From positions 23,460 to 87,459 of the IMG/VR virus record IMGVR_UViG_3300015360_000029: 64,000 nt of DNA; one strand, given 5' to 3'. A model generated the notes under the pieces. It did no database searches and was not told the origin of the DNA. It saw only the letters and a list, made by a program, of their open reading frames with translations. Source of the DNA: a virus. A program made the position numbers and the translations under genes. Positions 20 to 54,161 of the stretch are shown in pieces (positions within the stretch are counted from its first letter, which is position 1; the number at the start of each line of letters is the position of its first letter).

Positions 20-241
20 TTATGTCGGTAGTTGATCGTCAGGGATCGAACCTTTTCGGACGAGCCACATTCGCTTCATAGTCTCGATGTTCGAGAGTTC
101 AAGGACCTTCTTCTTGTACGGTGCCGGGATGTAGTTCTCGTCGTCTTCCTCTTCATCGAGGTCGGACTTCCAGTTCCAAGTGATCTGCCCAGTCTCGTCT
201 TCGATCTTGCCTTCGGCGATGAATTGTTTGAACGAGATCAT
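20..241 (-). CDS. Small protein with capsid-targeting-like N-terminus (possibly a truncated internal protein)
   Basis: Starts MISFKQFIAE, resembling the T4 internal-protein CTS MKTYQEFIAE; overlaps the gp25 stop (ATGA). Confidence 0.55.
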   Translation of the reverse strand: MISFKQFIAEGKIEDETGQITWNWKSDLDEEEDDENYIPAPYKKKVLELSNIETMKRMWLVRKGSIPDDQLPT

Positions 242-615
242 GATCCAACTGGAAATTCAAGTTTCAACGTTTCCGTGATGTTCAATTTCACGTATTCGAC
301 ATCGATCATTGCTACGATTGCATTGTTATTTGGGAGCGGCAGAACAGCGATGTCGATCAAGCGAACTCGCGGGTCATAATTCATTACCATCATAAGATCT
401 TCCTTGATAATGGAAATGCTTGTTTGATCTAGCGGTTCAAAAGCCATCAACGGGATTCGAGTTCCGAACTTAGGCTGCATCACACGTTCACCTGGAATTG
501 TATAAATGTGGTTCAGCAGATCGCGTTTCACAGTCTCGACATCGATTGTCGAGAAGGTCTTCCCGCCATTCTCGACATGAGCTTGTGTACTAAATCCACG
601 ATAGATTGATCTCAT
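238..615 (-). CDS. gp25: Baseplate wedge protein, gp25-like
   Basis: DLLNHIYTIPGERVMQPKFGT...FEPLD...YDPRV motifs typical of gp25/GPW; start reassigned to MRSIYRGF at 615. Confidence 0.9.
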   Translation of the reverse strand: MRSIYRGFSTQAHVENGGKTFSTIDVETVKRDLLNHIYTIPGERVMQPKFGTRIPLMAFEPLDQTSISIIKEDLMMVMNYDPRVRLIDIAVLPLPNNNAIVAMIDVEYVKLNITETLKLEFPVGS

Positions 616-619
616 AATG

Positions 620-1732
620 TCATTCCTTCCAATTCTTGCCGCGCACGATCTTCGATATTGGACGCTTCCATGGTTCATGTGACGGGATTAATGATGGTTG
701 ATCAGCGCACGGCGCTAGTGCAGCTTCATTGCCATTCAAATGAATCTGAGGTGCCGACTGCATCAGATTTCCGGCTGCAAGAATGTTGAACGTCTCGCCA
801 GATGTGATGTTTACACCACCTGCGCCTGTGAGCGAAAGATCAGAGCACGCTTCTGCTCGTAATGATTCCGAAGCGTTCAAATTTAGATTCTTACCAGCGC
901 TGATATTCACGTTCCCAAGCGCTTGCAAATTGAAGTCTCCACCTGCGGACATGCTGATAGATTCAGCTGCGTATACATGAACATGCCCGTCGCGATCCAT
1001 CTCTAGCCACGATCGACCTTGTGAAGTTGAAACATAGATTCGTTCATTCGCATCATCAAAGATAATCTGATGCCCTTCGGCTGTTTTGATTCGAACGCGA
1101 GCGCTTCCAGGATGATCTTGCATGATGATCGCGTGCCGACCTGGCGTAGTGATGCAATACGTCTGCGGATCAAGGCGCCCAATGTTTGAATCAGCAGATC
1201 GAATCACTCGCGGCGAATATCCTTCAGAATCCGTCTTTTCGTCTGTTGGCTGAGCTGCCATTCGTTCGTAAGCTCCGCGCGTTCGAGATATCGACGATGC
1301 AAGATCACCTTGGAATTGTGCCTTCAAATTCGTTGCCGTTGGCTCGATGATGCCACCGCTGTCAGATGTCGGTGCATCATCGTTCACATTTCTGCCAGCT
1401 GGAAGACTTCGATTACCGTGATCGGGGAAGAATGATCCCATGTATACACGTTGATTGTAATCTCCGTACAAGAACCCAATTAAGACTTGAGCACCGAGTT
1501 TTGGAACAGCCCAGAATCCGTATGATACAGGCCCAGAAGAAGCAGCACTTGATCCGCCAGCTGGGTACCCATAAGCCTGTCCAGCCAGCGGCGAAACATA
1601 CAGCACCCATGGGAGGATGTCAACGTTAGGATTCTGACCGTCGATAGATGGGCACCAAACTTTAATGCGACCCATCTCTTGTGGATCAGCGGTGTCAACA
1701 ACAACCCCGTCAATAAGTCCTGAGTTTGCCAT
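620..1732 (-). CDS. gp5: Baseplate spike/hub protein, gp5/VgrG-like OB-fold, no lysozyme domain evident
   Basis: GVVVDTADPQEMGRIKVWCP, VPKLGAQVLIGF..GD and C-terminal beta-helix-like repeats ending IHLN. Confidence 0.85.
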   Translation of the reverse strand: MANSGLIDGVVVDTADPQEMGRIKVWCPSIDGQNPNVDILPWVLYVSPLAGQAYGYPAGGSSAASSGPVSYGFWAVPKLGAQVLIGFLYGDYNQRVYMGSFFPDHGNRSLPAGRNVNDDAPTSDSGGIIEPTATNLKAQFQGDLASSISRTRGAYERMAAQPTDEKTDSEGYSPRVIRSADSNIGRLDPQTYCITTPGRHAIIMQDHPGSARVRIKTAEGHQIIFDDANERIYVSTSQGRSWLEMDRDGHVHVYAAESISMSAGGDFNLQALGNVNISAGKNLNLNASESLRAEACSDLSLTGAGGVNITSGETFNILAAGNLMQSAPQIHLNGNEAALAPCADQPSLIPSHEPWKRPISKIVRGKNWKE

Positions 1733-4197: not shown

Positions 4198-5877
4198 TTA
4201 TGGTCCTAGGGCAGCGAGCTGCTCTGTAGCTCTTTGGAAATCACCTGATGCTCTTTTTATATCTGAAATTGCAGCATCGAGTTCTAAATTTATAGCAAAC
4301 ATTTCAGCTTTAGTGGTCGCTGCTGCCAGACGCGGTTCAAGGCTGTTATATTGAGCTTTGTGAAATTGAAGTTCTTTGATAACTACACCAATTTCGTTGT
4401 TAAGAGCACTCTTCTTAGCTTCAATTTCTGAGGAAGTTAAAGCTGGTGCAGGTTGTGCTGCAGGTTGTGCTGCTGACACAGATACAGCTGGTGCCACCTC
4501 AATAGATCCAGATTCGCCAGCACCGGATTCAGAAGCGGCCGTCTTCAATTCTGAAATAGCAGGTGTAACAAGATCAGGGATTACATTACCTCGACCGCCT
4601 TTAACAGAATCGCCAAGCCCAGCAAAAACTCTTTGTGCTGAATCGATATCGGAACGTATCCCACGTCCTCGGCCCCCATTTGGAACTGATTGAGCTTCTT
4701 GTTGAGGGATCTCATTTGTAGAAGTTCCAAAGTTCTGGCCTTCGTATCGAGATTTCGTATCGGCTGTTGGTTGCCCATAAGCATCAATCATGTTCCCGAG
4801 AAGGTAATCTTCAAGACTGAATTGATTGAATTCTTTTGTGCTGAAGCTCTCGACAAGTTGAATTGAAAGTTGGATTACCGTTGGGAACGGGATGTTTGAA
4901 GCTGATTCATCTGGCGACATTGCTGGGATGTAATCTACATCTTTCGGCCAATTCCAACTCAGTGACGTAATGACAACTGGCACCTCGCCGATCATCGATT
5001 TCCTGAATCCACGAAACTTCAAAACAGGTGGTGGCGCGCCAAGTCTGTTCTTGAATCGACCAGATTCGAGTGTGTGATCACCAAAGAACGGCATCGTCCA
5101 GCCGCGCAGCCAGTTCAAGTTCTTCAAGTTCAAAGATGCTTCGGCTGATGTTCGTGAAATAAATGTAGCATTCATTTGCCATTGAACACTTTCAGTGCCT
5201 TTATACTTTTGAAAAGAACCTGGGAACTGTGATGGGGATACAGCTTCGTATGATACTGACCGATTCTCAACGATCTCTGGCATCACTATGAATTCAATGA
5301 TCTCACGAGTGATGGTATTTTCAAGAACAACCAAATGCGAACGATCTTCTCCAGCATCTTGAATTTTGATTACTTCGTTCACAGATTGTGCTGTCGCTGT
5401 CACATCAAGACTGCTGCCGCCGAATCCGAGTCCGAAAGTGTTCCCGCCAAGAGCTCCGAACAAATTTGGTGGGGCAAATTGGGTAGGAGCAGTTCCACCT
5501 AAAAGGCTAGCTGTTGATGGCAGCTTTGATCCTAAATTTTGAAAAGAATTTATTCCATTCGTAAATCTATTTTTTAGATCAGATATACCTTCTCCAACTT
5601 TAGTGCCAAGATCTGAAACAAACATTCCAACTGCGCGGTATGCTTCACCTCGTCCCTTTGCTTGTTGGAGACTCGACATAGCTGCTAACCGATTTTGAGC
5701 TCGTTCGACAAATTCGGCAGGGGCCTGACCATTTTCAACCGCTGCCGCGAGTTCCCGAAGATCGTTTTCATCTTGTGTGGGAGTATCGACCCCCGGTAAC
5801 AACAGATACCCACCAACAAGGTTCTCAGAATTACTGCCTAAGATGCTTGTGTTAAAGGTTGAATCTGGAATTTCCAT
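4198..5877 (-). CDS. Baseplate/tail-tube junction protein (tube-initiator-like core with low-complexity extensions)
   Basis: Central YKGTESVQW...LRGWTMP...GAPPPVLKF...VPVVITSLSWNWP; located in the baseplate cluster. Confidence 0.65.
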   Translation of the reverse strand: MEIPDSTFNTSILGSNSENLVGGYLLLPGVDTPTQDENDLRELAAAVENGQAPAEFVERAQNRLAAMSSLQQAKGRGEAYRAVGMFVSDLGTKVGEGISDLKNRFTNGINSFQNLGSKLPSTASLLGGTAPTQFAPPNLFGALGGNTFGLGFGGSSLDVTATAQSVNEVIKIQDAGEDRSHLVVLENTITREIIEFIVMPEIVENRSVSYEAVSPSQFPGSFQKYKGTESVQWQMNATFISRTSAEASLNLKNLNWLRGWTMPFFGDHTLESGRFKNRLGAPPPVLKFRGFRKSMIGEVPVVITSLSWNWPKDVDYIPAMSPDESASNIPFPTVIQLSIQLVESFSTKEFNQFSLEDYLLGNMIDAYGQPTADTKSRYEGQNFGTSTNEIPQQEAQSVPNGGRGRGIRSDIDSAQRVFAGLGDSVKGGRGNVIPDLVTPAISELKTAASESGAGESGSIEVAPAVSVSAAQPAAQPAPALTSSEIEAKKSALNNEIGVVIKELQFHKAQYNSLEPRLAAATTKAEMFAINLELDAAISDIKRASGDFQRATEQLAALGP

Positions 5878-6575
5878 TATTTCTTGATTTCTGCATTAGG
5901 TGAATTCAACGAAATTTTGACTTTCTTGAAAATAATGTCAGCAAGTTTCTGATTGACACCAAGAATACTGGCGAACGCTTTCTTTTTACCAAGCTTCACA
6001 GCCAGCCGAGCCATCGATGCCGACATCATGTGAATCGGGATTTCTTTACCATTCTCAGCCATGTCTAAGAGTTCTTCAGACGGAACACCATCATCAGGGT
6101 CAGCACGCTCATCAAGTCCTGGCAAGATGATGTGTTTCAATTTTGAACCGTCAGCTGCAGTGAAATACTTATCTAGCAACTCAATGTATTTCGCAGCACG
6201 ATCTGATCCGGCTGCGATCGCGTACGGCTCAAAACCAGCCTTTCGAACGTCTTTGAAAGCATCGAACGCTGTTTTTGAAGTGATGAACTTCACCCCGTTC
6301 GCATTCCCAGATGCTGTCATGAACTTGATTCTGTCTTCTGCCGAGAGTGGGTTCCTCTTCAAATCTTTAGAAGTATTATCGTTAGCTACGACTACGACGA
6401 TTGGAGTTACCTTGTGCCCCATAGCCACTGTGAATGCTGTCATCAACTTAATGGCACTATAGTGGCCTTGAGTTGGTGGATTGAACCGCCCTACCATGAC
6501 AACCGCCCTTTTCGATTGCTCGCCGACAGTTTCCTCCAACAAGTATTCATTCATGATGTCTCCAAATTCGATCAT
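5877..6575 (-). CDS. Cytidylyltransferase-like (HIGH-class) nucleotidyltransferase
   Basis: GRFNPPTQGH, NPLS, AGSDR and MSASMAR motifs; true start may be the later MNEYLLEE. Confidence 0.8.
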   Translation of the reverse strand: MIEFGDIMNEYLLEETVGEQSKRAVVMVGRFNPPTQGHYSAIKLMTAFTVAMGHKVTPIVVVVANDNTSKDLKRNPLSAEDRIKFMTASGNANGVKFITSKTAFDAFKDVRKAGFEPYAIAAGSDRAAKYIELLDKYFTAADGSKLKHIILPGLDERADPDDGVPSEELLDMAENGKEIPIHMMSASMARLAVKLGKKKAFASILGVNQKLADIIFKKVKISLNSPNAEIKK

Positions 6576-10171: not shown

Positions 10172-10195
10172 ATACTAGATGCTTTGGAGACTTGA

Positions 10196-10771: not shown

Positions 10772-10796
10772 GCGGTTCTGAAGCAATAAATAAGGG

Positions 10797-11192: not shown

Positions 11193-11199
11193 TCATCCA

Positions 11200-11793: not shown

Positions 11794-11803
11794 AGGAGTT
11801 TTC

Positions 11804-11995
11804 ATGCTCATTCAATACACACCCGTCTCGTCTCTCAGTACTGAAGCTCGCCAGCGTTTAATCGCATCGGCTCAAAGCTTGTTGCTTACAAATGAAGCTT
11901 CACGTGGGCATGTCATTTTCGAAGGCAAATACTTCAATGTCAGCGAGGTTCGCGCAGCCGCATCCTCGAATCGTATCTTCCTTGCTGAAGGCTGA
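11804..11995 (+). CDS. Hypothetical protein
   Basis: 63 aa with strong RBS AAGGAG. Confidence 0.6.
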   Translation: MLIQYTPVSSLSTEARQRLIASAQSLLLTNEASRGHVIFEGKYFNVSEVRAAASSNRIFLAEG

Positions 11996-12361: not shown

Positions 12362-12364
12362 AGA

Positions 12365-14120: not shown

Positions 14121-14690
14121 TCACATCTCAAGTTGATCAACGTACAGCTTCGACACAGGATTCTTGACCAGACGTTTAGAGCCTTGAGCGTACAAGCCTT
14201 GTTTGATCTCGTCCGCCATGTTCTTTGTGATGTTCCTGGATCGCATTCCACCACGCAGGAAGAAGTGAACTGGAACAGGCTCGTCACCATTGACACGTCG
14301 AACCATTCGCATCCGTCCACGACCTTCGTGTCCTACGATCTTCGGAAGCGTCTTGCCTTCGTCGTCGATCATGATCTCGAAGAACGGGATCCCGATTGCG
14401 TACCCTTCTTCAACGAACTTCTCAAGATCACGTGACGTTGGCTCTTGCTGACCTTCGTCGTCGAGAGCGAGCGACATGAACACTGACGGCTTCACAAAAC
14501 CGACGAACCCCATGTACCATACGTTCGTGTTGTTCGGAACTGAGCCGAACCCTTTGCTCGAAGAGAACGTGATCTTCCCGACTGTGTAATCTTCTTCTGC
14601 TAAAGCTGGTGACCAAGCCGGAACATCACCAAGCCTCTTGGCATGAATCTCGCGCTCAGCCTCGGCAAGGAATTGTTTGAATGTGTGCAT
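14121..14690 (-). CDS. Capsid-targeted protein with ParB/Srx-like motif
   Basis: Starts MHTFKQFLAE; IVGHEGRGRM resembles the ParB GxxR motif. Confidence 0.6.
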   Translation of the reverse strand: MHTFKQFLAEAEREIHAKRLGDVPAWSPALAEEDYTVGKITFSSSKGFGSVPNNTNVWYMGFVGFVKPSVFMSLALDDEGQQEPTSRDLEKFVEEGYAIGIPFFEIMIDDEGKTLPKIVGHEGRGRMRMVRRVNGDEPVPVHFFLRGGMRSRNITKNMADEIKQGLYAQGSKRLVKNPVSKLYVDQLEM

Positions 14691-16674: not shown

Positions 16675-18162
16675 TCACTTTCTGATACCGAGCTTCTTCA
16701 GAATGTCATCTTCCCATAATGTTCCTGAGATATTTACATCTTGAAGCGTTATTCCTAGACGCTTCAGGATCAAACGGAATTCAGCTTTGTGCCTGTCACT
16801 AGATTTCTTGATTCCAAGTTCAGAGAACGCTCGAAACAGCCCGCTAAGCAACTTACTTTGAAACCAGTCTTTTGCATATCGTTGTCGAGTTGAGTTACTT
16901 GTAATTCTGCCTGCTTTGGCATCGGCCATCCAAACATTCAATTCTTTGGCTATATCTTCTTGATCACCGAACTCGAGGATGTCTGCAAGTGATCGAGAAT
17001 CTAAGTCAGTATTCTCATCTGCAGCTTCGACCTTTCCAAGAATCTTCGTGACTTTCTTCAAGTATTCATTTCGTTCTGCAGCTGGATCGATCGCGATTTC
17101 TAGAGCAAGAACGAATCGCAGAATAGTATCATAGATCAAATCGTACTTCGTGTGGTATTCAGCATTCCCGGCAATTCGGAATTCAAGATATCCACTCTTT
17201 ATCTTCTCAATGTGCACAGACGAATACTTAGCTGTTGAAAGAGCTGAGCGAGCGAGTTTCACCATCGCATCAGCTTCCTTTGGAAGCTTTCCAATGCCAG
17301 TAAGAGAAGTGACGATCGCATCGGTCTGCGGCTTCGTAAATGTGTTCGAAAGACGATCAAATTGTTTCAGAACATATCTATCACCCATGAACAATACGAG
17401 CTTCAACAGATCAGCATTCTCAATCCCAGGCATACTGATGTTTATGTGCAAGCCAGTGGTGATGTTCGTTTCAACATTTTGCCGAACCATCCAGCTAAAC
17501 ATTGATTTCAAATCTTGAAGTGCTTTCATCAAAGTCTGCGGCGGCGAGATAATTTCTGCACCAACCCCTACGGCACCTGCAGTAATTGATCTGTCAGGAA
17601 CTACAAGCCAGTCACCTCTATCGAAGTGTTCTTTAGATTCGCGCCAGGCTATCGTGACATTTTGCTCAAGATGATCTGACAAATCGTCCTCTATGTTCGA
17701 GAATGTTCCCTTTTGCATCTCTTCGATATCCATGTCGGCTAGACCGCCGATGTAGATTCTAGCCGATGATTGCCCAGTATCAGCTTCCCAACCGTATGTT
17801 GGGATGAAACCATTGGCTTTCACGAAATTGTACACAGATTTATATTCGTCAGAGATGAAGTTCTCCCATTCGATTTCATCATCTTCCGATTTCGTTTGAA
17901 CCCAATTGTCGTATTCTTTGGTAATTGTCTTTTTCTCAACTTTGTCAATTTCGAAATAATCAAATAATTCATTGAAGTCTGTGATTTTGTTCAATGACGT
18001 CCATTCGCGATTCACTTCTCCATTCGCAAGAAGTTCGGACTTTTCAGAAATGACGCACTCGAATTCGAACCCAATTTTTGCATCGCTATGCCGCTCCGCT
18101 GCTTTTGCGAATTCAGCACGGTTCATCGCCTTCTCAGCAAGGAAGTTTTTGAATGTAATCAT
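16675..18162 (-). CDS. Putative amidoligase (COOH-NH2 ligase family) with capsid-targeting N-terminus
   Basis: IGFEFE, PDRSI, GAEIISPP, TGLHINIS, KYSSV, YLEFRIAG; starts MITFKNFLAE. Confidence 0.8.
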   Translation of the reverse strand: MITFKNFLAEKAMNRAEFAKAAERHSDAKIGFEFECVISEKSELLANGEVNREWTSLNKITDFNELFDYFEIDKVEKKTITKEYDNWVQTKSEDDEIEWENFISDEYKSVYNFVKANGFIPTYGWEADTGQSSARIYIGGLADMDIEEMQKGTFSNIEDDLSDHLEQNVTIAWRESKEHFDRGDWLVVPDRSITAGAVGVGAEIISPPQTLMKALQDLKSMFSWMVRQNVETNITTGLHINISMPGIENADLLKLVLFMGDRYVLKQFDRLSNTFTKPQTDAIVTSLTGIGKLPKEADAMVKLARSALSTAKYSSVHIEKIKSGYLEFRIAGNAEYHTKYDLIYDTILRFVLALEIAIDPAAERNEYLKKVTKILGKVEAADENTDLDSRSLADILEFGDQEDIAKELNVWMADAKAGRITSNSTRQRYAKDWFQSKLLSGLFRAFSELGIKKSSDRHKAEFRLILKRLGITLQDVNISGTLWEDDILKKLGIRK

Positions 18163-19103
18163 GGGTATTGAACCTGGTTAGGCTCAGGCGGGCTTCGAGT
18201 TCCTCGCTGAGGAGCGATGTATTTTTCGATTTCGTACCAGCGCACCCCGTCCCAACGCTTTGCAATGTTCGATGTCATGTCGAACCAAGTTTCATCGACT
18301 TCTGGATTTGCCGGCGCAATGTTCTGAACGTACGTGCATTCAGCTGCACTCGGTACTTCGTTAGTGTCGAAGTCGAGGCGCGTGAATGGTTCATCGAACG
18401 GAACTAAATTTCCAAAGTCATCAACTTCATTAATATTCATCGATCCAAGGTTTCCAATTTGAATGATAACTCGACGAACCAGATCATCTTTCACGCCCAT
18501 TGGAATACTGAGGAAGATTGGAAGTTCGAACGCCAAAGTCCATAAAATTATTCGACGATCGGATCCAGATGGATAATTCTCTTCGTTGCTAATCGAAGTG
18601 AGTTCGACTTTTGTAATTCGAGTCCAATCAAACGGGCCATCAGACTTCTGAATTTGCAGATCTGGATTGAACAACACAAGCACTTGCTCAAGGATTTGAT
18701 CTCGTTGTTGTGTATTCGAGGTGTAAATGCTGAGTTCAACAGTAATGTTGTACGGGATCGGCATCGCTCGCTTCACAACAGTCAGATCTGTTGGGAACAC
18801 ACCGCCAATTGGAAGCGTGACGCGTTGATCAACGTATGCTTGAACCTTTCGACGCTCTGGCGCTGGATCGATTTGCGTCAGGTGGGCCGCCATCGTCGGA
18901 AGACTGAACACACGATTCTGTGTGTTCCCTGCCATGATCGCAGCGACAACACGATCTTTGTGCCCGATCACGATTGGCACTGTGATAAATTCTGCATCGC
19001 CGCATTCGCCGATCCCAGTTTGAACTTGGAGACCGTGAAAGATACTGACGAATTGCAAAAGGTACTGTCGCAGTTGATTGTCGAAGTGGTAGTGAGTGAT
19101 CAT
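18159..19103 (-). CDS. gp15: Tail sheath stabilizer/terminator
   Basis: HFDNQLRQYLLQF, VPI, PIPYNITVELSIY, QILEQVLVLFNP. Confidence 0.88.
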   Translation of the reverse strand: MITHYHFDNQLRQYLLQFVSIFHGLQVQTGIGECGDAEFITVPIVIGHKDRVVAAIMAGNTQNRVFSLPTMAAHLTQIDPAPERRKVQAYVDQRVTLPIGGVFPTDLTVVKRAMPIPYNITVELSIYTSNTQQRDQILEQVLVLFNPDLQIQKSDGPFDWTRITKVELTSISNEENYPSGSDRRIILWTLAFELPIFLSIPMGVKDDLVRRVIIQIGNLGSMNINEVDDFGNLVPFDEPFTRLDFDTNEVPSAAECTYVQNIAPANPEVDETWFDMTSNIAKRWDGVRWYEIEKYIAPQRGTRSPPEPNQVQYP

Positions 19104-19183
19104 TTGAATAACTTCGGATGAGTGTCAATGTATTCGGCGGCCTTGTCTGTCATTTCAGCAATGAATTGTTTGAATGTGGTCAT
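19100..19183 (-). CDS. 27-aa peptide that is little more than a capsid-targeting sequence (possible remnant)
   Basis: MTTFKQFIAEMTDKAAEYIDTHPKLFK; ATGA overlaps with both neighbours. Confidence 0.5.
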   Translation of the reverse strand: MTTFKQFIAEMTDKAAEYIDTHPKLFK

Positions 19184-19515
19184 GACACCTTCGATTCTTC
19201 AAGTTGTTCTTGCGAAACGATTCTGCCTGGGAGATATTCAACTTCCATATCTATAGCTTTTTGAAGGCGATGAACACCATCCAACACGACCCATTTGCGT
19301 TTCCAAATCGTCATCAACAGCGGAGCATTTAAGTCAGCAGATTTCACACGCGCAGCATCATTGTCTTCAGCAAGGATCCATTCAATGTCAGCAACTTTGA
19401 AATACGAGACTGGGTTCTTATCAACAAGTCTAAACACCGTGTTTATGTCATACTTCTGCTTGTCATGGGTAAACGAACCACCTTTTGTCTCTTGATATAA
19501 TTCAAAAAGCTTCAT
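19180..19515 (-). CDS. ParB/Srx-like small protein with MKLFEL-type N-terminus
   Basis: ADLNAPLL...VVLDGVHRLQKA. Confidence 0.7.
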   Translation of the reverse strand: MKLFELYQETKGGSFTHDKQKYDINTVFRLVDKNPVSYFKVADIEWILAEDNDAARVKSADLNAPLLMTIWKRKWVVLDGVHRLQKAIDMEVEYLPGRIVSQEQLEESKVS

Positions 19516-21395: not shown

Positions 21396-22012
21396 TACGA
21401 AGCCACCGGATCGGTGAACACAAGTTGAGCTCGACCTTTGTCATCTCGCATCATGACGTTCTTATCGTGCAGATCGACGCCATTCAGATTCGCAAAGTAC
21501 TTCGCAACAACTCGAACATCGTCATCAGTTGTTTTGCTAGCGATGCGGCCCCAGTGCTCATCGAGCTCTTGGAAATCGGTGTAATCAATCATGTCATCGA
21601 ACAGCGGATCGTCTTGTCCGCCTTGATCGAAGTACTTCGGTGGGACCGTTTTGAGAACACGTTGCACAGCAGCTTTGATTTCTTTCTTAGTGGCTGGCCG
21701 AAGCTTTTGAAAGAAGATGATGTGCGCACTCACCGTCCCGCCATCTCTTAGGAACTTATCATCAACATCGACCTTATGAATGCTGACGATCTTTGGCAGC
21801 CATTCGTTGTTCGGGTTCTTCTCACAGAACTTTGCGAACTGCATGTACTCTGGATCGTATTCAACAACCTTGACTGCGACGTTGTGGTACACTGGATGTT
21901 GGAACACCGACGCGTACACACCAGTGCCGAGCTTCTTGATGTTCAGCGATTTCACAAGCTTATCGGTGTATTGATCAAGCGTCTCTTCTTGAATGAGTTC
22001 AAATACTTTCAT
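21395..22012 (-). CDS. Atypical protein kinase-like enzyme with MKVFEL-type N-terminus
   Basis: Gly loop LGTGVYASV, VAVK lysine, catalytic DLHDKNVM, FTDP. Confidence 0.78.
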   Translation of the reverse strand: MKVFELIQEETLDQYTDKLVKSLNIKKLGTGVYASVFQHPVYHNVAVKVVEYDPEYMQFAKFCEKNPNNEWLPKIVSIHKVDVDDKFLRDGGTVSAHIIFFQKLRPATKKEIKAAVQRVLKTVPPKYFDQGGQDDPLFDDMIDYTDFQELDEHWGRIASKTTDDDVRVVAKYFANLNGVDLHDKNVMMRDDKGRAQLVFTDPVAS

Positions 22013-33757: not shown

Positions 33758-35437
33758 TCAAACAGCGGGAGGAGGCTCAACTCTAGCACCGGTTGCAGGC
33801 TCTTCTGCTGGTTCTTCAGGTGCTGCGCTGAAGAAATCACCAGGTGCAGGAAGCTCACTGCCAGCGCTAAAGTCTTCTTCGCTACCAGGGTCTCCACCAA
33901 TTTCAGCTTCGGCAGCGCTGCTTTCAACTTTCTGAGCTTCACGGTTCTCGTACACGGCTGGGTCATAGATTTGTTGCAATTCTGAGATGTTCGATGTCCC
34001 CGAGATCATACGCTCCTCTTTGAGCATCACTTCGTTCATCTGGATCTCGTCATCGGTCAGACCGAGGTAACGCTTCAGAATGAATCGGCGGCTCAAGTAC
34101 TTAGTACCTTCAATGTTGTTGAATGAACCGATCAGATCTGCGTCAAGAGCAGCTTGACGGTACAAAGCGAAGTTCGCTGGATCAGGAAGTTTGATCTTAA
34201 AAATTTCGTCGTCGATCTTCAGACCAACAACTTTCAAGTACACCTTGAATTCTTGATCAATGATTTCTTCGATACGATCTTGAAGGCGCATCACAAAATT
34301 CGCGAATCGCAATTCTTCAATGTATGCAATTCCGACCTTACCGTCATTCGTTGCAGCTCCTGCCTGTCCTTCGGCCCCAGTTCCCATGTACGATGTTGGG
34401 ATTCGAAGACCGCGGAACACTTTGTTCTGAAAGTACGCGAGCAAATTTGTACCGAAATCTTCAGTACCACCAGGCAACGTTTCAACACGTGACCCACGTC
34501 CTGATGATGTTACAGGAAAAAACAGATCTTCTTGAATCGACGTCGGATCGTATGCACCGTCAACCGTATCCTTGCCACCAGCTGATGTTGGCGATCGTTT
34601 CTGACGAATTTCATTCTTGATCTGCTCAAGGTATTGTTTCACTCGTTGTGGCGGCAAGTTTCCTGTGTCAACGTAGAACACACGACGTTCTGGGGCACGA
34701 ACAATTCTGTAAATGATAACTGCGTCTTCAATCATCGCAAGCTGACGATACACCCTATAAATCGGTTGCAGTACAGAAGCGCCGAACGGGGCAGAATATC
34801 CCATATCATCGGACATCGTGATGTGAATCATTGCCGCCGCTGGAATAATCTGTAGCTCTTCGTTCTTAGGTGAATACGGGTTCTGAACGCCTGTGTTCGC
34901 CTTCTTCACATGATAGCTGATCTTATCGCCGAGTTCATTGATCTCAATCCCGTGCACAAGCGATGGATCAACGTATTTCCATTTCTTCGTATCGGAAGTC
35001 TTTTGAAAGAAGCAATCGCCGTATTTGATCAAACAACGAGCGATGCTGAATAATCGTTTGTTGAAATCTTGAATTTCTGCCCATTGTCGAAGAGCTTGTC
35101 GAAGAGTAACTGATGTCGAATCGCTGATGTCTTGATTGTCTTCTTTCTGGTATTCAATTATGAACGGAAGATTTGTTTTGCTTTCTTTGCCAGACATTTC
35201 TTCTGCAATGATGTCAAGTGATCGTGAGATGTCAATGTCAGTGTCCATAGCATCGTACTGTTTGTACGACTGTGAGCGCGAGCCAGGTCCTCGCAAGACT
35301 TGCGAGTACCATTGGATCGACGACAACGAAGAGACATCTGTCTTTCGCGGGTCATACGCATCGGTTGCAAGCGAAGTGTACATCTGCTTCCGCGAAGCAG
35401 GTGTAATGATTCGCCAGTAGTTTGAAAATTGTGACAC
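33758..35437 (-). CDS. gp20: Portal protein
   Basis: QLAMIEDAVIIYRIVRAPERRVFYVDTG, EDLFFP..GRGSRVETLPGG, EELRF. Confidence 0.97.
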   Translation of the reverse strand: MSQFSNYWRIITPASRKQMYTSLATDAYDPRKTDVSSLSSIQWYSQVLRGPGSRSQSYKQYDAMDTDIDISRSLDIIAEEMSGKESKTNLPFIIEYQKEDNQDISDSTSVTLRQALRQWAEIQDFNKRLFSIARCLIKYGDCFFQKTSDTKKWKYVDPSLVHGIEINELGDKISYHVKKANTGVQNPYSPKNEELQIIPAAAMIHITMSDDMGYSAPFGASVLQPIYRVYRQLAMIEDAVIIYRIVRAPERRVFYVDTGNLPPQRVKQYLEQIKNEIRQKRSPTSAGGKDTVDGAYDPTSIQEDLFFPVTSSGRGSRVETLPGGTEDFGTNLLAYFQNKVFRGLRIPTSYMGTGAEGQAGAATNDGKVGIAYIEELRFANFVMRLQDRIEEIIDQEFKVYLKVVGLKIDDEIFKIKLPDPANFALYRQAALDADLIGSFNNIEGTKYLSRRFILKRYLGLTDDEIQMNEVMLKEERMISGTSNISELQQIYDPAVYENREAQKVESSAAEAEIGGDPGSEEDFSAGSELPAPGDFFSAAPEEPAEEPATGARVEPPPAV

Positions 35438-47877: not shown

Positions 47878-48344
47878 AACCAAATGATCTTTTGAAAACT
47901 AAAATTACGAATCCATTGGATGAACTGTTCAACACACTTCCTAATGATCTCGAAGAAGATGGAGATTACATCCCGATGTCAGAAGGCACACTTGCGTCCC
48001 TTGGACCAGCCGAGCTAGTCGCAGTCGAGAAAGACGAAGAAGACATCGAGATTGATCGGAAGGTAGATGAAGTGTACGGTGCTGCGATCGATGCGTTCAA
48101 TAACCAAACAGCGTACATGGAAGTTATTGAACCTCGTTATGCGGCTAGAAATGCCGAGGTCGCTGCGAACTACTTGAATATCGCGCTAAATGCTGCTTCA
48201 GTTCGCGCGAAAGTGAAGGGCGATCGGAAGAAGAACGCAGCGTTCGTTCCATTCGGCAATAACAAGACGAATGGTGCCGTCGTTGCTTCTCGCGAAGACA
48301 TTATGAAAATGATCGCAGTTGATGCAGAAATGAAAAGAGGATGA
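47874..48344 (+). CDS. gp16: Terminase small subunit
   Basis: EPRYAARNAEVAANYL...K and C-terminal VVASREDIMK pattern. Confidence 0.65.
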   Translation: MKPNDLLKTKITNPLDELFNTLPNDLEEDGDYIPMSEGTLASLGPAELVAVEKDEEDIEIDRKVDEVYGAAIDAFNNQTAYMEVIEPRYAARNAEVAANYLNIALNAASVRAKVKGDRKKNAAFVPFGNNKTNGAVVASREDIMKMIAVDAEMKRG

Positions 48345-48733
48345 TTTTGAAGATTTCTGAGCTGATCGAAGATGTGAACAAGAAAGTGTTTATGCAAGGG
48401 TTCGAACAAGAGCGTGGAATCCTTGACGGTAAATACATTCTTGTAGCAAAGCACGGTTACCTTCCGTACACAACACCACAAACTCGTGTAAGTAATCAGT
48501 TCAGAATCGAAGTCAAAACAGCTCGCGGTGTTCAAGTTGGCTGGGTGAACTTCGAGAACATCAACGATGATCTTGAGGCACTTGACCTTTCAGTTTCTGA
48601 GAAGCATCGTCGAAAAGGCATTGCTTCGGAGATGTACAAGTTCGCTCGTGATCTCGGGAACACAATCAAACCATCATCGAAGCAGACCGCAATGGGTAAG
48701 AAGTTCTGGTCGGATAAGGACCACTCGAAATGA
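48341..48733 (+). CDS. GNAT acetyltransferase with MxxKISEL-type N-terminus
   Basis: Acetyl-CoA motif VSEKHRRKGIASEMY; QTAMGKKFW. Confidence 0.8.
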   Translation: MILKISELIEDVNKKVFMQGFEQERGILDGKYILVAKHGYLPYTTPQTRVSNQFRIEVKTARGVQVGWVNFENINDDLEALDLSVSEKHRRKGIASEMYKFARDLGNTIKPSSKQTAMGKKFWSDKDHSK

Positions 48734-49869
48734 TTACATTCAAACAGTACTTGGCTGAAGGTTCAAGCGGCCCAGACAAATGGGAGAAGTATTTCTCTTC
48801 GGGTGACGTCGAGACACTCGCAAAGAAGGATGCTGACTTGTTCGATGTGTTCGACAAGAAAGTAAAGAAAACTGTTAAAAAAGGCGACAAGATCAAGGTC
48901 CTCTTTTCCGACAAGTACGTGACAAAGGTTAAAGTTCGAATCGGCGACGGTGAGTACTTGATGAAGTTCACAGATGTGGACAAGCCGTTCAAGGTGGAGC
49001 GCGTTGTTGGCATTGACTTAAAGCCAGACAAGCTCGGACTGTTCGGGCCGAAGTTCATGTCAAAATACGGCGCCGAAGTGAAGAGACTTCTTGATTCGCA
49101 CACTGACATCCCGACAGAACGTGCCGATTATCTGAAGGCTCTTGTTGATCTTGCCGAGTCTCCAGATGATAATGATCTTGAAGATGCTGCCAAAGAACTG
49201 TACATCTCGACAGGCACGAAGGATGATCAAGCGTTCAAGAACACGATCAACAATGACTTCATGGAAGTTCTCGGTCCGTTCTTCGTTGTCAATGAGAAGC
49301 CTGAGTACAAGGCAGGCGGTGTTCAATTCCCAGTGCTCGGAAACCAGCCGCTGTACGACTTCACGATGAAAGCGAAGCAAGGCGCAAACGAGAACATCGT
49401 TAGCTTCAGTTCAAAGCGCTCTGGTGGGAACACGAACACGCTGAAAGTGTCCGCAGTATTAAATGCGTTGAAAGATGCTGATCCGAAGTTCAAGAAAAAG
49501 TTCTCGAGAGAGATCGAGTTAATGAAGCTGATCGACGAGAACTCCATCAAAGCAACCCCCGGCAAAATCAATCAATGGCTCGCGAACACATTTTCATCGT
49601 ACGAAAAGTTACCTGATGCAACTGACATTGCATCTAATGTTAATCTCGAGCGCTTAGTTACGAAGTGGATCAATGAAAACTCAGGCATGACATTTATTCC
49701 TGTGGTTCAGCAAGCAGTTCCAGACCTGTGGTATGTGAAGTCGCGATTGGCTTCTGATGGCACGCTCAAAGTGGAACCTTTGAAGTCAGGTCAAGAAATC
49801 ACCAAAGCGATCTTTAGGTCGAAGTCATCTTCAGGTCACATGGCCGACAAGCTTGGTTTCGCTCTGTAA
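48730..49869 (+). CDS. Capsid-targeted hypothetical protein, possibly PD-(D/E)xK nuclease-like
   Basis: Starts MITFKQYLAE; E...FP..N.PLYDF...SFSSK pattern. Confidence 0.55.
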   Translation: MITFKQYLAEGSSGPDKWEKYFSSGDVETLAKKDADLFDVFDKKVKKTVKKGDKIKVLFSDKYVTKVKVRIGDGEYLMKFTDVDKPFKVERVVGIDLKPDKLGLFGPKFMSKYGAEVKRLLDSHTDIPTERADYLKALVDLAESPDDNDLEDAAKELYISTGTKDDQAFKNTINNDFMEVLGPFFVVNEKPEYKAGGVQFPVLGNQPLYDFTMKAKQGANENIVSFSSKRSGGNTNTLKVSAVLNALKDADPKFKKKFSREIELMKLIDENSIKATPGKINQWLANTFSSYEKLPDATDIASNVNLERLVTKWINENSGMTFIPVVQQAVPDLWYVKSRLASDGTLKVEPLKSGQEITKAIFRSKSSSGHMADKLGFAL

Positions 49870-49914: not shown

Positions 49915-52092
49915 ATGACACTTCTCAAAGAACTGTTCGCGCTAACCGAACTTAAGAATCACATGGGCGAAACTGAGTATAGCTCATACAAGTCTTGGAA
50001 AGCTGCTGTGAAGAAAGTTGTTGGCGACTCACCTGTGACATTCATTGGTGACTCTAGTATGGACGAAGCTCATGTCAAGGATGACAATGGCAAGATGCGT
50101 GCCGTTGGCGAATGGGATGGCTACGTTGGCGTCGTCTACAAGAAGCCAGCTGGCATGAAGGTTGATGAAAGTCGCCTCCGCTCGGCGAAAGAACGAGATG
50201 CTCACGATCTTGGTTTCAAAAATGCTTCAAAGGGTACGCCGACTGAACTCAAAGACACGTGCCCGTACACAAGCGGGACACCTGAGTACCGCGCGTATTA
50301 CCGCGGTGTTGAAGATCACGCTATGGCGAATCCAAAGAAGGCGAAGTCATTGAAAGAAGGCCGTGGCTGTCCTTCATGGTTCAAGAACGGTGCGAAAGTG
50401 AAGCTTCGTTCAGAGTACGCTGACAAGGACCCTCAAGAAGTGTTCACGCTTTCGAACGTTGATGACGAACAAGGCGATGGCAAGATTTCGGATGACGACG
50501 GCAAAGGCTGGACAGTCAAGCACTTCAAGGTGTACCCAGCGAACCTGAAGACTGAACCTGTCGATGAGACGCTGACGACGGCTAAGGCTGAAAGTCATGG
50601 CGGCGAATGGCTCGTGAAGTTCATACACTGCCCTTCGGCTACAGACAAGCGTCAGCTTTCGATTCGTTCAATCAAGGCGATCACGTCCGGACAAGCTGTC
50701 GCTCTCGCAAAGGCGAAGCTCCCGAAGGAACTTCAAGACTGCGCTGAAGTCGAGTCGGTCAAGATGATGTCTGAGCCTGTCAAAGAAACACTGGGTGAAG
50801 ACGCCGATTACGCAAAGCAGCTCGTGCGCGGCGAGAAGGCTGGACCTGGCGTTATGAACAAGCTTAATCAATGGTTCACAAAGCTTGTTGTCGATAAGGA
50901 TGCAAATCGTTTCCTTCCGGCAGACAAGGCACTGGATCAGCTCGCACGAGCTGGATTCAGCAAGGATCAAATTCAGAAGATTCGCGATGCAGCTGCCGTT
51001 GCTTGTAACACTGCAATCGAACGGATGCAATCGAAGCACGGAGATCGTGTTCCAGCAAAGTACATCTCGAAGATGGGATCAAGCTTCGGCGTGTTTGATC
51101 TGTATCTCAATGTCTCCGAAGAGATTCACAAAGAGTTCGCAGCGTTGATGCGCAAGCTGTTTGATGCGAAGCTCGACAAGATGAAGGACGATTTGCTGTT
51201 GCCAAAAGCCGCTATTGGGAAGTCGCAAGAAGCGTCGATGAAGGGTGATTGGGGAACTGCCAAAAAGCATTTTGATACGTACGATAAGGGTACAAAGCTC
51301 AAAGAGGATGATGCTCTGCAAAGTCTCGGGAAGATTCTTTCTGGAAAGGCGACTGAAGCACCTGCCAAAGACGAAGTCACCGATTCAACAGATGCTTCAA
51401 TCTCCACAGCACCGGTTGAAGAACCAGCACTTGAAGGTCCAGTGTTCAAGGCCGGTGACAAGGTGAAGCCAAAGTCAGGTCCGCACGCTGGTGAAATTCA
51501 TACAGTTCAGAAAGTCCTTGCGAACGGCTCGCTCGACATCGTTCCGGATAACGTCACCAAAGTGAAGTACGCAAAGGGTGGAGCGAATGCACGCCCAGAA
51601 CAACTTGAACTTTTTGAAGGTTTTAAGTTTCTTGGTTTGTTCAAGAAAGGTTCATTGCTCGCTCAATTCTCGCTGATGGAAACTAAATGGACACCAAAGA
51701 AAGACGATGTGTCATTTCACAATAGCTCTGAAGAATGGAAGAGCGGGTACACGGATTACATGAACGGTCAGAACTGGAGCTTTCCTACAGCTCGATTGAA
51801 ATCTGCCGAAGGTAAGAAGTACCGCAGCGGTTGGGACGAAGCTGAAGCAGCAAAGAAGCGCATGAAAGAACAGGGCAAGGTCACTGAAGCTCGTTCGAAC
51901 GATGACTTCATGCCATTGTCGTACGGTGCCAAGAAGGGTCACACGATCGAAGCGTACGGTCGCAAGGGCATGAATAGTTTGAAGTGGCGCAAGATGTTCG
52001 TGTCTCAGAAAAAGCTTGATGATTGGGTCGAAGCTAATGACGCAAAAGTTGAAGGCATGCGCAAGCTCGACGACAACGAAAAGGTGAAGTGA
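49915..52092 (+). CDS. Multidomain internal head protein (putative polyprotein)
   Basis: Late promoter at 49883; MTLLKELF start; small domains separated by L/VxE motifs. Confidence 0.65.
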   Translation: MTLLKELFALTELKNHMGETEYSSYKSWKAAVKKVVGDSPVTFIGDSSMDEAHVKDDNGKMRAVGEWDGYVGVVYKKPAGMKVDESRLRSAKERDAHDLGFKNASKGTPTELKDTCPYTSGTPEYRAYYRGVEDHAMANPKKAKSLKEGRGCPSWFKNGAKVKLRSEYADKDPQEVFTLSNVDDEQGDGKISDDDGKGWTVKHFKVYPANLKTEPVDETLTTAKAESHGGEWLVKFIHCPSATDKRQLSIRSIKAITSGQAVALAKAKLPKELQDCAEVESVKMMSEPVKETLGEDADYAKQLVRGEKAGPGVMNKLNQWFTKLVVDKDANRFLPADKALDQLARAGFSKDQIQKIRDAAAVACNTAIERMQSKHGDRVPAKYISKMGSSFGVFDLYLNVSEEIHKEFAALMRKLFDAKLDKMKDDLLLPKAAIGKSQEASMKGDWGTAKKHFDTYDKGTKLKEDDALQSLGKILSGKATEAPAKDEVTDSTDASISTAPVEEPALEGPVFKAGDKVKPKSGPHAGEIHTVQKVLANGSLDIVPDNVTKVKYAKGGANARPEQLELFEGFKFLGLFKKGSLLAQFSLMETKWTPKKDDVSFHNSSEEWKSGYTDYMNGQNWSFPTARLKSAEGKKYRSGWDEAEAAKKRMKEQGKVTEARSNDDFMPLSYGAKKGHTIEAYGRKGMNSLKWRKMFVSQKKLDDWVEANDAKVEGMRKLDDNEKVK

Positions 52093-52406
52093 TGAAAGTC
52101 TCAGAACTTTTTGAAGGTGTTGATACGCCACCGCGCCGTCCGAAGTCTGTGATTCAATTCAGCGCTAAGGTCGCCGCTGAAGAACTTCGAAAGAAGGGTT
52201 TGAGCGTTCGAATCGATACTCGTGTTGTTGGGCGACATGAGAAATCAGATCGAACTGTGATGACAGTTACTGGTGACATTGAAGAAGCAGACATCTTGAA
52301 GGTGCTGAAGAAACACAAAGTCGTGTTTGCCACTGTTGGCTCGACGATGAAGGGTGACAAGAAGATCAGAATGATTCGTCTCGTTCAACCAAAGGAAGCT
52401 CAATGA
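52089..52406 (+). CDS. Small protein with MKVSELFE N-terminus
   Basis: Overlaps the upstream stop; shared N-terminal motif. Confidence 0.6.
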   Translation: MMKVSELFEGVDTPPRRPKSVIQFSAKVAAEELRKKGLSVRIDTRVVGRHEKSDRTVMTVTGDIEEADILKVLKKHKVVFATVGSTMKGDKKIRMIRLVQPKEAQ

Positions 52407-52504
52407 AAGTTCACGAGCTATGTTCGATCAAGCTGACACGCGTACTAATCTTATCACGCTCAATGGTATCATCACAATCATGCCAGGCGCGTGATGCAAC
52501 GTAA
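52403..52504 (+). pseudogene. 33-aa MKVHEL-start remnant
   Basis: ATGA overlap and RBS; motif start followed by apparently out-of-frame sequence. Confidence 0.35.
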
Positions 52505-52522
52505 ACGTCTCTTGCTAAAAGA

Positions 52523-53284
52523 ATGATTTCATTTAAGCAATTCCTTGAAGAGGCTAAGAAGAAGCCTAAAGAAGACAACTGGCACTCTGGGCCAGAAGCG
52601 TATGCTTCAGGGTACTCGAACCTTCGCGACATTCAAGCAAACCTTAATGTCGAGATGGATGGGCGAAAGAAGTTCCAGTTGTTCGTTCCGAAGCGGCGCG
52701 ATCCACAAGTCGAGATCGATCGTGCTCGTGATCGTCGGTATCGTGAAGCGAAACGTGAAGTCGACGCTGAGCTGAAAGAAGAGAAAGCACCAGTTCTAAC
52801 TGGGTTCAACGAAGCTCCTCCCGGTGACAACAAGCCTGGCAGGTCTTTCTGGACATCAACAGCGATTGATCGAAACGATGGTACGTACACATCCGATTGG
52901 TATCTGTACGTCAAGAACAATCATCGTGGCTGGCAAACTGATTACGGGTACTTGTTCGAAGTTCAACCTGACGCTCGAGTATTCAACATCAGCTACGCAG
53001 AACAATACTATCAATGGGCGATGGATCAGAAGCGAATGAAGCTTCCAGAGCGTGAATACTATCGCCCGTACTCACGCGACGATATGCGTTCAAGGTTCCC
53101 TTGGGATGAGCTCAGTCGGCACTTCGATGCTGTTCATTGTTCGCATCCGGACCGCGGGCACGGATACGGCGACGATTTTACATACGGCTGGGATGTTGAA
53201 TCTACAGCGTGGTTCAACACTGCTGCTCTTAAATACAAAGGTGCCGTGAAACTGTTTCGCGGCGGAGATCCAGATGATGAATAA
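52523..53284 (+). CDS. Capsid-targeted hypothetical protein
   Basis: Starts MISFKQFLEE; internal LKE; aromatic-rich C-terminal domain (FWTS...FDAV...WDVES). Confidence 0.65.
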   Translation: MISFKQFLEEAKKKPKEDNWHSGPEAYASGYSNLRDIQANLNVEMDGRKKFQLFVPKRRDPQVEIDRARDRRYREAKREVDAELKEEKAPVLTGFNEAPPGDNKPGRSFWTSTAIDRNDGTYTSDWYLYVKNNHRGWQTDYGYLFEVQPDARVFNISYAEQYYQWAMDQKRMKLPEREYYRPYSRDDMRSRFPWDELSRHFDAVHCSHPDRGHGYGDDFTYGWDVESTAWFNTAALKYKGAVKLFRGGDPDDE

Positions 53285-54161
53285 GCTGACGTTCAAACAA
53301 TTCCTCGAAGATGCTCGTGGCGCTCATGGCGAATACACGAATGACATTGGTGAGAAGACAATGGTTCATGCGATCATCAATGCTTTGTTTGGCGGGCGGA
53401 AAACTGACGAGAACTATGATCGCGTGTATAGTTTCCTTGAAGAGAACGAGCAGTTCTACGATGCCTTCTACGATGCATTCGCTGAGAAGGCAAACATGAA
53501 GGCGGCGATTTCATACGCTGAACGAAACAAACTTTCAATACCGGCGACAGCGCTCTCTCCAGAAGCTTCGAAGAAAATACAGGAGTTCAAGATTCAATTG
53601 AAGCAAGAGTTCAATGATTGGGAGAACTTGAATGAAGACAAGGAACTCAAGGGCAAGACGAAATCAAGTAAGCGTGCCTATAAAGACTACACGAATTTCA
53701 AGGGTGTCAGTGCCGAAGATAAGAAAGAGCTGAAGAGCACGATGGATCGTGAACTCAGAAAGTTCAAGAAGTCTGACCATAAGGACCCGAAGTCGTACCC
53801 AAAAGATTGGCCAGCTGACAAGAAGTACAATGCGAAGCTGAAAGAAAAAGGTAAAGAACTTCCGAAGTCGAAGTACACAGATAAGTACAAGGCAATGTAC
53901 GGCGAAGTTCAGCTTTCAATCAATGATGAAATGTTATCTGAAGGTAATGTTGATGTGGCTTTGAAGAACAAAGCTGAGAAGACTGGTATTAAACAAAGCA
54001 CTCTTCGCGCTGTTTTGAATCGCGGTCTTGCTGCTTGGCGTCAACATCATCGTCCAGGTGTTGGACAGATTCAATGGGCAATGGGTCGTGTTAATAGCTT
54101 CATCACCGGTGGTGGCGCTCGCAAAGCCGACAAAGACCTGTGGGACAAAAGGAACGCATAA
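53274..54161 (+). CDS. Capsid-targeted multidomain protein with DUF5824-like C-terminus
   Basis: LTFKQFLED start; LRAVLNRGLAAWRQHHRPG...QWAMGRVNSFI. Confidence 0.65.
   Translation: MMNKLTFKQFLEDARGAHGEYTNDIGEKTMVHAIINALFGGRKTDENYDRVYSFLEENEQFYDAFYDAFAEKANMKAAISYAERNKLSIPATALSPEASKKIQEFKIQLKQEFNDWENLNEDKELKGKTKSSKRAYKDYTNFKGVSAEDKKELKSTMDRELRKFKKSDHKDPKSYPKDWPADKKYNAKLKEKGKELPKSKYTDKYKAMYGEVQLSINDEMLSEGNVDVALKNKAEKTGIKQSTLRAVLNRGLAAWRQHHRPGVGQIQWAMGRVNSFITGGGARKADKDLWDKRNA

Follow-up and report, generated by a model that had tools for sequence, protein, structure and literature searches.

Candidate T4-type capsid targeting leaders on a dispersed set of proteins, several of them enzyme-like, in a T4-superfamily jumbo phage

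The subject of this study is a dispersed set of phage genes whose otherwise unrelated products begin with a short leader peptide similar to the capsid targeting sequence (CTS) of bacteriophage T4. The genes lie in a 64,000-nucleotide stretch of viral DNA (IMG/VR record IMGVR_UViG_3300015360_000029, positions 23,460 to 87,459), referred to here as the window, which forms the right-hand portion of a virus contig of 87,459 bases and whose source is, judged from its sequence, a T4-superfamily jumbo phage. Seven open reading frames (ORFs) of the window start with one leader form, termed type A, which is restricted to N-termini, and a second form, termed type B, begins further genes; the same genome encodes a T4-type capsid protein and prohead protease, and within several of the cargo families the leader comes and goes as a module with a fixed boundary. 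The leaders are probably CTSs of the T4 kind, whose cargo would be processed, kept in the head and delivered to the host. This interpretation had been put forward in an original prediction made from the DNA letters and their translations, and every sequence-level test that was run, whether on the protease, the key leader residues, the leader boundary or the virion band of a relative, fits the T4 kind.

How would such a system operate? Docking, cleavage, head retention, ejection and a role in host takeover or anti-defence are the steps that we infer. The leader would form an N-terminal helix of 9-13 residues, with hydrophobic residues at positions 4, 7 and 8 and a Glu at position 10, and this helix would let the freshly synthesized protein dock onto the scaffolding core during prohead assembly. 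A gp21-type serine protease would then cut after the Glu of [LI]-x-E, such that the mature protein could remain in the head with the DNA and enter the host at infection. The cargo delivered in this way would comprise an amidoligase, a T7 gp0.7-type kinase, a protein with an ADP-ribosyltransferase (ART) fold, one restriction-endonuclease-like and one GNAT-like protein, two that bear ParB-like motifs, and a number of small unknowns.

Two leader forms at the N-termini

The type A form reads M-x-[ST]-F-K-[QN]-[FY]-[LI]-x-[ED] across the seven ORF starts, which are its sole six-frame matches in the contig, and all seven places at which it had originally been claimed translate as stated. The genes concerned are the following:

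20..241, minus strand: 73 amino acids (aa), leader MISFKQFIAE; an acidic small protein, isoelectric point (pI) 4.5
14121..14690, minus strand: 189 aa, leader MHTFKQFLAE; carries a GHEGRGR (ParB-like) motif
16675..18162, minus strand: 495 aa, leader MITFKNFLAE and then KAMN; Amidoligase_2-like
19100..19183, minus strand: mini-ORF of 27 aa, leader MTTFKQFIAE; little beyond the leader
48730..49869, plus strand: 379 aa, leader MITFKQYLAE and then GSSG; SH3-like and MspI/HinP1I-like domains in a predicted model
52523..53284, plus strand: 253 aa, leader MISFKQFLEE; ADP-ribosyltransferase-superfamily fold in a predicted model
53274..54161, plus strand: 295 aa, leader MMNKLTFKQFLED; C-terminal DUF5824

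The pattern [FY][KQ][QNE][FY][ILV].[ED] has seven matches in a six-frame translation of the window, every one of them directly behind a start Met, and a looser pattern applied to the whole contig gives ten matches, which are the same seven plus three internal ones. Phe at position 4, Phe or Tyr at position 7 and Leu or Ile at position 8 are found in all seven leaders, and Glu at position 10 in six. The remaining one, in the gene that starts at 53274, has three extra residues that shift the motif, and an Asp at the last position.

These positions can be set beside what has been described for T4. The sequence MKTYQEFIAE, which the original prediction gave as the T4 CTS, is indeed found in the T4 record on ipII and ipIII, with ipI starting MKTFKEFTST, alt MELITELFDE and gp24 MAKINELLRE. 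The CTS has been documented, as has its removal adjacent to residue 10 (10.1101/2021.01.19.427310), with gp21 cleaving after Glu within I/LxE (PMC12991175). For IPIII to be incorporated, its first 10 residues are enough; targeting depends most on residues 4 and 7 and processing on residues 8 and 10, and with Asp at position 10 processing is blocked while targeting persists (PMC9026906). gp21 processes both termini of Alt, which also has a C-terminal propeptide (PMC9026906). The T4 CTS loads varied proteins and has been proposed as a general device of T4-like phages (PMC9026906), the cargo having only the leader in common (PMC3012670).

The second leader form, in its clear version, is M-K-[LVI]-x-E-L-[FIY]-x-E. 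As originally written, MK(L/V)xEL..E, it holds for two of the 82 called genes, those starting at 19515 and 22012, and the other genes that had been assigned to it fit loosely or doubtfully. A looser version is found at 4 of the 82 N-termini and at 1 of 501 internal Met residues, and adds the genes that start at 48341 and at 52089/52092. The 34-35-aa ORF starting at 52403, which had also been counted as a leader gene, has no closing acidic residue and is best left aside as doubtful. The type B genes, together with one further candidate, are:

19180..19515, minus strand: 111 aa, leader MKLFELYQE; DGVHR (ParB/Srx-like) motif, phrog_17560
21395..22012, minus strand: 205 aa, leader MKVFELIQE and then ETLDQY; T7 gp0.7-type protein kinase family
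48341..48733, plus strand: looser type B, 130 aa, leader MILKISELIED; GNAT-like, marginal
52092..52406, plus strand: looser type B, 104 aa from the ATG, leader MKVSELFEG; basic, pI 10.1
49915..52092, plus strand: weak type B candidate, 725 aa, N-terminus MTLLKELFALTE; no family match, loose fit
5877..6575, minus strand: further candidate, 232 aa, N-terminus MIEFGDIMNE; cytidylyltransferase/NMNAT-like (phrog_3041, 2.6e-15), fits the generic pattern described below

The idea that the 725-aa protein is a polyprotein with multiple cleavage sites finds no support in site density, its seven [LI]xE sites amounting to ~0.97 per 100 aa, where the mean of the window is 1.07. Outside the window, a 164-aa ORF on the minus strand with the type B-like start MIVQELFDD lies ~4,050 to 3,556 bases before window position 1. 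In T4, the type B regex was run over the whole genome, and of 1,634 first-start ORFs it picks out only gp24, Alt and the duplicated fragment alt.-1.

Types A and B are read as two forms of one signal class, hydrophobic-x-x-hydrophobic-hydrophobic-x-Glu, because both the leader boundary and an exchange of one type for the other are seen within cargo families, as described in the next section. A regex for this generic class matches 7 of 82 N-termini of the contig against 5 of 501 internal Met residues (p=4e-4), and in the jumbo phage RsoM2USA it matches 13 of 511 N-termini against 10 of 2,250 internal Met residues. It also brings in the cytidylyltransferase-like gene 5877..6575, which lies among baseplate genes, was absent from the list in the original prediction and has homologues in 18-19 of 118 listed IMG/VR loci with type A leaders.

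The leader as a separable module and the nature of the cargo

The leader behaves as a detachable module whose end is fixed, its C-terminal Glu sitting at the point where leaderless homologues start. For instance, an exhaustive HMMER search with the 379-aa protein gave 119 relatives, 61 of which were aligned. Twelve of the 61 have a leader of 9-12 aa that ends in E immediately before the sequence [AGS][ST][ST]G, and the other 49 are leaderless and have 1-2 residues, in 46 cases Met alone, ahead of that same position. A tblastn search for the leaderless homologues in cultured phages found one unannotated record. With the kinase, the start MK[LVI]x[ED]L[LI]xEE is common to the majority of 68 listed homologues, at least three have a clear type A leader (MITFKQF...) and one an MRFKEF variant, and ~11 short forms of 172-186 aa are leaderless and start at or near the mature ET..Y segment.

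The remaining two families extend this picture. Of 120 listed homologues of the amidoligase-like protein, the type A regex picks out 58, with many others being near variants; in 90 of the 120, [LIVM]x[ED] stands exactly 2 residues ahead of a conserved M[NSGH], with propeptides 8-28 aa in length. Nearly all of 103 listed homologues of the 253-aa protein begin with a leader, 22 of them matching the type A regex and the others being variants judged by eye from their N-termini, and here type A (MITFKQF..) and type B-like leaders (MKINELLNE, MKLKDLFEA, MRAKEFLSE) share one position. Among orthologues that are 30-50% identical the leader peptide is kept, whereas the codons and even the leader type change.

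What, then, is carried behind the leader? The original statement that the cargo proteins are otherwise unrelated is borne out, in that an all-against-all BLASTP comparison aligns only their first 10-18 residues. The functional labels given to them stand to differing degrees. That of kinase for 21395-22012 is upheld by a match to phrog_15752 (3e-14) and by PF27024 on many homologues. The GNAT acetyltransferase label for 48341-48733 is marginal, with 21.9 bits for Acetyltransf_1 against a cut-off of 20.7. The amidoligase label for 16675-18162 is carried by the homologues, most of the 120 listed having PF12224, but the protein itself scores 19 bits where the cut-off is 22. The two proteins called ParB/Srx-like do have the motifs GHEGRGR (14121-14690) and DGVHR (19180-19515), but neither gives a Pfam hit at E<=0.01. 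The latter protein has no PDB sequence match, and when four cargo proteins were compared with PDB sequences no hit fell below E 0.08.

AlphaFold2 (AF2) models were built for two of the cargo proteins, 52523-53284 and 48730-49869, and in both the leader is modelled as a short separate helix covering residues 4-10 or 4-11. The model of the 253-aa protein 52523-53284, which has no Pfam hit, has a pLDDT of 83, and its best structural matches are almost all members of the ADP-ribosyltransferase superfamily, including PARPs, together with a cyanophage pre-ejectosome chain. The top matches are MbcT (Z 7.0), NatT (6.3), the diphtheria-toxin catalytic domain (5.9) and ParT (5.2), all below Z 8. In 68 sequences of its family WTS[TS]A and GWDVES are invariant, with a Lys or Arg at position 57 in 64 of the 68. 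On the basis of the model we call this an ART-fold protein, with activity predicted at most. A homology to T4 Alt at the sequence level was looked for and rejected, there being no similarity (E 1.5).

The 379-aa protein 48730-49869 is modelled with a pLDDT of 93.4 as an SH3-like domain at residues 25-90 (Z up to 8.0) followed by a C-terminal domain. The latter has structural matches to MspI (Z 5.7 over 186 aa) as well as to HinP1I (Foldseek E 0.03), and Atlas leads, which serve as leads only, point to restriction endonucleases (0.78). Residues E179, D210 and K229 are invariant in the family. The modelled C-terminal domain appears PD-(D/E)xK-like.

Head genes, gene context and relatives

Beyond the leader genes, the window encodes a head module of the T4 type, its scaffold being a probable assignment:

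29737..31041, minus strand: major capsid protein (Pfam Gp23, 1e-88)
31068..31964, minus strand: probable scaffold, in the gp22 position; 13 [LI]xE sites in 298 aa
33043..33651, minus strand: prohead protease of the T4 gp21 type (Peptidase_S77 PF03420, 1.6e-27)
33758..35437, minus strand: portal protein (phrog_213)

By tblastn the capsid protein has its nearest counterparts in two jumbo phages, RsoM2USA at 52.6% identity and XacN1 at 50%; its identity to T4 gp23 amounts to 25%, and it has a candidate propeptide end between HLME and T. The S77 protease shows 33% identity to T4 gp21 in alignment, and its segments LGELNHP and GVSSRG align with H85 and S140 of T4 (numbering of the catalytic residues from PMC12991175), the catalytic His and Ser being conserved. 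The product of 31068..31964 has no Pfam match, and its sole PHROG match is to a family of unknown function; it is assigned as scaffold solely because of its position and its count of [LI]xE sites. At 4.36 per 100 aa its density of such sites is the highest in the window, followed here by the protease at 3.96, both being ~4 times the mean of 1.07 for all called genes. Further virion genes encode the tail sheath, a gp15-type tail terminator and tail tube proteins, as well as a head completion protein resembling gp4 and a large terminase of the T4 type. At the DNA level, a megablast search with 10 kb of the window found no match in the phage collection.

The leader genes are woven into these structural genes. 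Eight of 12 overlap the stop of the upstream gene on the same strand by 1-11 nucleotides (nt), and the genes overlapped in this way include a baseplate wedge gene, gp15 and the gene for a 627-aa virion protein. Thus 20..241 has a 4-nt overlap with the stop of the baseplate wedge gene 238-678, and the mini-ORF 19100..19183 has 4-nt overlaps on both sides, with the stop of 19180-19515 and with the start of gp15. The amidoligase-like gene 16675..18162 lies between the gp15 and sheath genes, and 14121..14690 lies 52 nt downstream of the sheath gene. In relatives with synteny, differing leader genes of both types fill the slots that separate gp15 from the 627-aa virion protein gene and from the sheath gene; the slot of the mini-ORF, for instance, holds a 65-aa leader ORF in one locus (L065) and, in another (L022), a type A ORF that is cut by the end of the locus.

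The T4 late-promoter box TATAAATA has two exact matches in the window, where 0.23 would be expected, at 14063-14070 on the minus strand, upstream of 13670-14038, and at 57856-57863 on the plus strand, upstream of the gene for a 1,335-aa protein at 57891. No such box stands directly upstream of a leader gene in the window. The original description of the leader genes as embedded in late operons consequently rests on the gene overlaps and not on promoters, since neither box precedes a leader gene.

Two features of the surrounding genome may be recorded here. A 250-aa ORF at 55545-56297 on the plus strand resembles a terminase large subunit (phrog_5989, 1e-23) and lies directly upstream of, and overlapping, the actual TerL gene 56254-57831. 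Between the neck and head genes, a block of repair-like and nucleotide-related genes on the minus strand (25026-29149) encodes an RNase T-type exonuclease, a weakly matching pyrimidine-dimer glycosylase, a photolyase-like FAD-binding protein and a MazG/PRA-PH-like protein, none of them with a leader.

The wider distribution of the leaders was followed in IMG/VR with degenerate DNA patterns and reversed-pattern controls, the locus counts given here referring to 118 listed stretches. The type A pattern is found in at least 118 stretches and its reversed control in none; all 122 matches begin ORFs, mostly with MKTFKQFLEE, on low-GC contigs. In 50 of the 118 listed loci, which have a mean length of 8.9 kb, tblastn finds a match to one of 30 T4 core proteins, most often gp15, gp13, gp14 and gp17. 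The type B pattern is found in at least 118 stretches against 10 for the reversed pattern, and 34 of the 118 listed loci match a T4 core protein against 1 of the 10 control loci. When ten leader-bearing records were searched whole, nine had an S77 protease. In records searched for exact type A matches the number per record was 1-5, as compared with seven in the window.

Of the cultured phages, RsoM2USA matches the exact type A pattern twice and a looser regex ~8-10 times, and has a few type B-like leaders. One of the tagged genes, RsoM2USA_89 (66030-66791, minus strand), encodes a 253-aa protein with the start MKTFKQFLSE and a mass calculated at 28.56 kDa. An ORF89 product of 28.57 kDa is reported among ten abundant bands of purified virions, assigned using LC-MS/MS (PMC8504454), and the ORF numbering of that paper corresponds to the locus tags in the case of the portal and capsid genes. 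The two are taken to be the same protein because the mass and the numbering agree. Another, RsoM2USA_385, has a type A leader, adjoins the capsid gene and carries a ParB-like GHEGRNR motif, which by eye, unaligned, is similar to the GHEGRGR of 14121-14690.

Alternative explanations and comparison with known systems

Several observations weigh against the leaders being dedicated capsid targeting signals, and the first of them concern where else such N-termini are found. Over the whole T4 genome the type A regex picks out ipII, ipIII and gp61.1 at first starts and the start of UvsW.1 at an internal ATG. gp61.1 (54 aa, 18966-19130 of NC_000866), which lies in the early region beside the primase gene, starts MKTFKEFIKE, and the UvsW.1 start (~114210 of NC_000866) reads MLLEFKQFLYE. 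Neither is known as a head protein of T4. Small gp61.1-like proteins beside a primase gene recur in marine T4-like contigs, and a primase homologue is found near a leader ORF in 16 of the 118 listed type A loci. The tag is therefore not confined to late virion operons, as gp61.1, UvsW.1 and the primase-adjacent small proteins of the marine contigs indicate. The refuting condition of the original prediction, a motif equally common among early non-virion genes, is partly touched by gp61.1 in the early region of T4 and by the primase-adjacent loci.

Other points of the same kind come from single genes and genomes. The leader of 53274-54161 ends in Asp, and Asp at this position blocks processing in T4 (PMC9026906). 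The Lys codon is AAA in six of the seven type A leaders, where 35% of Lys codons genome-wide are AAA, the minor codon, and some RNA-level preference at the 5' end is therefore possible; AAA is common near starts. XacN1 has few leaders in a whole-genome protein regex search and none by a loose DNA pattern, and its virion contains a chitinase and a lipase that are packed without leaders (PMC5852040). The assignment of the RsoM2USA ORF89 band is itself phrased as 'most likely correspond' (PMC8504454). Finally, a leaderless homologue of the 379-aa protein sits amid leader-bearing genes in one IMG/VR locus (L309), where at 10001-16250 it is followed by genes starting MQRFKSFITE, MQRFKAFILE, MKTFCQWIKE and MKTLKAFILE, and no S77 hit was obtained in the 141,838-base record that contains this locus and is 77% complete, which neither favours nor weakens the idea that leaderless forms come from phages lacking a T4-type protease.

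How far do such observations favour another explanation? The leader could direct proteins to the prohead core, where the cargo acts in assembly or is degraded, being neither retained nor injected. The T4 core proteins gp67, gp68 and gp22 provide a precedent, in that gp21 processes them and for the most part they are lost from the head (T4 record; PMC9026906; 10.1101/2021.01.19.427310), and two of the leader ORFs, at 27 and 73 aa, are too short for enzymes. Most of the cargo, however, is enzyme-like (kinase, amidoligase, ART fold, nuclease-like) and has no obvious role in assembly. Beyond the leader, moreover, it is not among the proteins densest in [LI]xE, as the scaffold is, although 19180-19515 at 2.7 and 53274-54161 at 2.03 per 100 aa are partial exceptions. 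With the RsoM2USA ORF89 protein reported in mature virions (PMC8504454) as well, we regard a purely assembly-related function as unlikely.

A different proposal takes the tag to be a general N-terminal module of T4-like phages, used for protease-dependent activation in the cytoplasm, for binding some other common partner or as an RNA-level start optimum. The tags outside the known T4 head set (gp61.1 and UvsW.1), the primase genes beside leaders and the AAA bias would all be accommodated by it. An RNA-level origin sits poorly with the DNA upstream of the leader ATGs, in which no conservation is seen, and with a peptide that is kept while its codons and even its type change. The coincidence of the Glu boundary with the start of leaderless homologues, the presence of the S77 protease in nine of ten leader-bearing records and the sufficiency of 10 residues alone for packaging in T4 (PMC9026906) also speak against such a general module, and we consider it improbable. 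That the shared N-termini are due to chance, or are functionless remnants of duplication or recombination, is hardly credible, even if the 27-aa ORF 19100-19183 could be such a recombination remnant, given that all seven six-frame matches are N-terminal, that the reversed control gives 0 against at least 118, and that the cargo is unrelated while, inside families, the leader persists across deep divergence.

Capsid targeting of the T4 kind is accordingly the reading that we retain, and a broader proposal can be built upon it, one that we put forward tentatively and would not yet back over its negation. The motif hydrophobic-x-x-hydrophobic-hydrophobic-x-Glu may be an address label used throughout the T4 superfamily, in T4, marine T4-like and jumbo phages, with MxTFKQFLxE and MKxxELFxE as interchangeable flavours; here it would mark a toolkit of at least 12 proteins, possibly including the nucleotidyltransferase, that act before phage gene expression. 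If this were true, the injected proteome of any T4-superfamily phage could be read from its genome. Even the narrower premise, that the leader directs head loading, would allow the packaged and injected sets of uncultured T4-related phages to be listed from sequence, and the ART-fold, nuclease-like, kinase and amidoligase proteins would become candidate first-minute effectors, with bacterial defence systems as possible targets.

The underlying idea is not new, being established for T4, and its general use in T4-like phages has already been suggested (PMC9026906). What is added here is the boundary evidence from leaderless homologues, the exchange between types A and B, the link to RsoM2USA ORF89 and the list of cargo. 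In full-text searches, whose coverage does not extend to subscription journals and supplements, no paper was found that spells out the FKQFL form, and 'capsid targeting' combined with 'cyanophage' led to a T4 review only. The accessible text of the RsoM2USA and XacN1 papers makes no mention of such leaders (PMC8504454, PMC5852040).

Measured by the capsid protein, RsoM2USA and XacN1 are the closest cultured relatives, of which RsoM2USA likewise carries several leaders and XacN1 has few. The phiKZ-like phages have long propeptides and a different cleavage motif, in contrast to the tag of the window, a short leader of the T4 type that ends in [LI]xE. These phages, SPN3US among them, nevertheless offer a parallel in that many of their head-internal proteins are cleaved by the prohead protease and ejected (PMC5694885, PMC7411985, PMC10052503).

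The closest likeness is to T4 itself. In both phages the signal comprises ~10 N-terminal residues with an aromatic residue at position 4, F7, I or L at position 8 and E10 (in the window, for example, MITFKQFLAE-like), in both the genome encodes an S77 protease of the gp21 type along with a capsid protein of the gp23 type, and in both the cargo proteins are alike only in the leader. The differences are that the phage of the window is a distant, jumbo-type relative known here from sequence alone; that it has seven type A genes in 64 kb, mostly large and enzyme-like, as opposed to the small basic proteins of T4; and that its leader genes are interleaved singly among tail, neck and packaging genes. 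The N-termini of T4 Alt and gp24 fit type B, as do MKVSELFEG, MKVFELIQE and MILKISELIED in the window. Alt is also, according to the T4 record note, an ADP-ribosyltransferase delivered with the DNA, and the window protein 52523-53284 is predicted to share the ART-superfamily fold, although it carries a type A leader and not, like Alt, one of type B.

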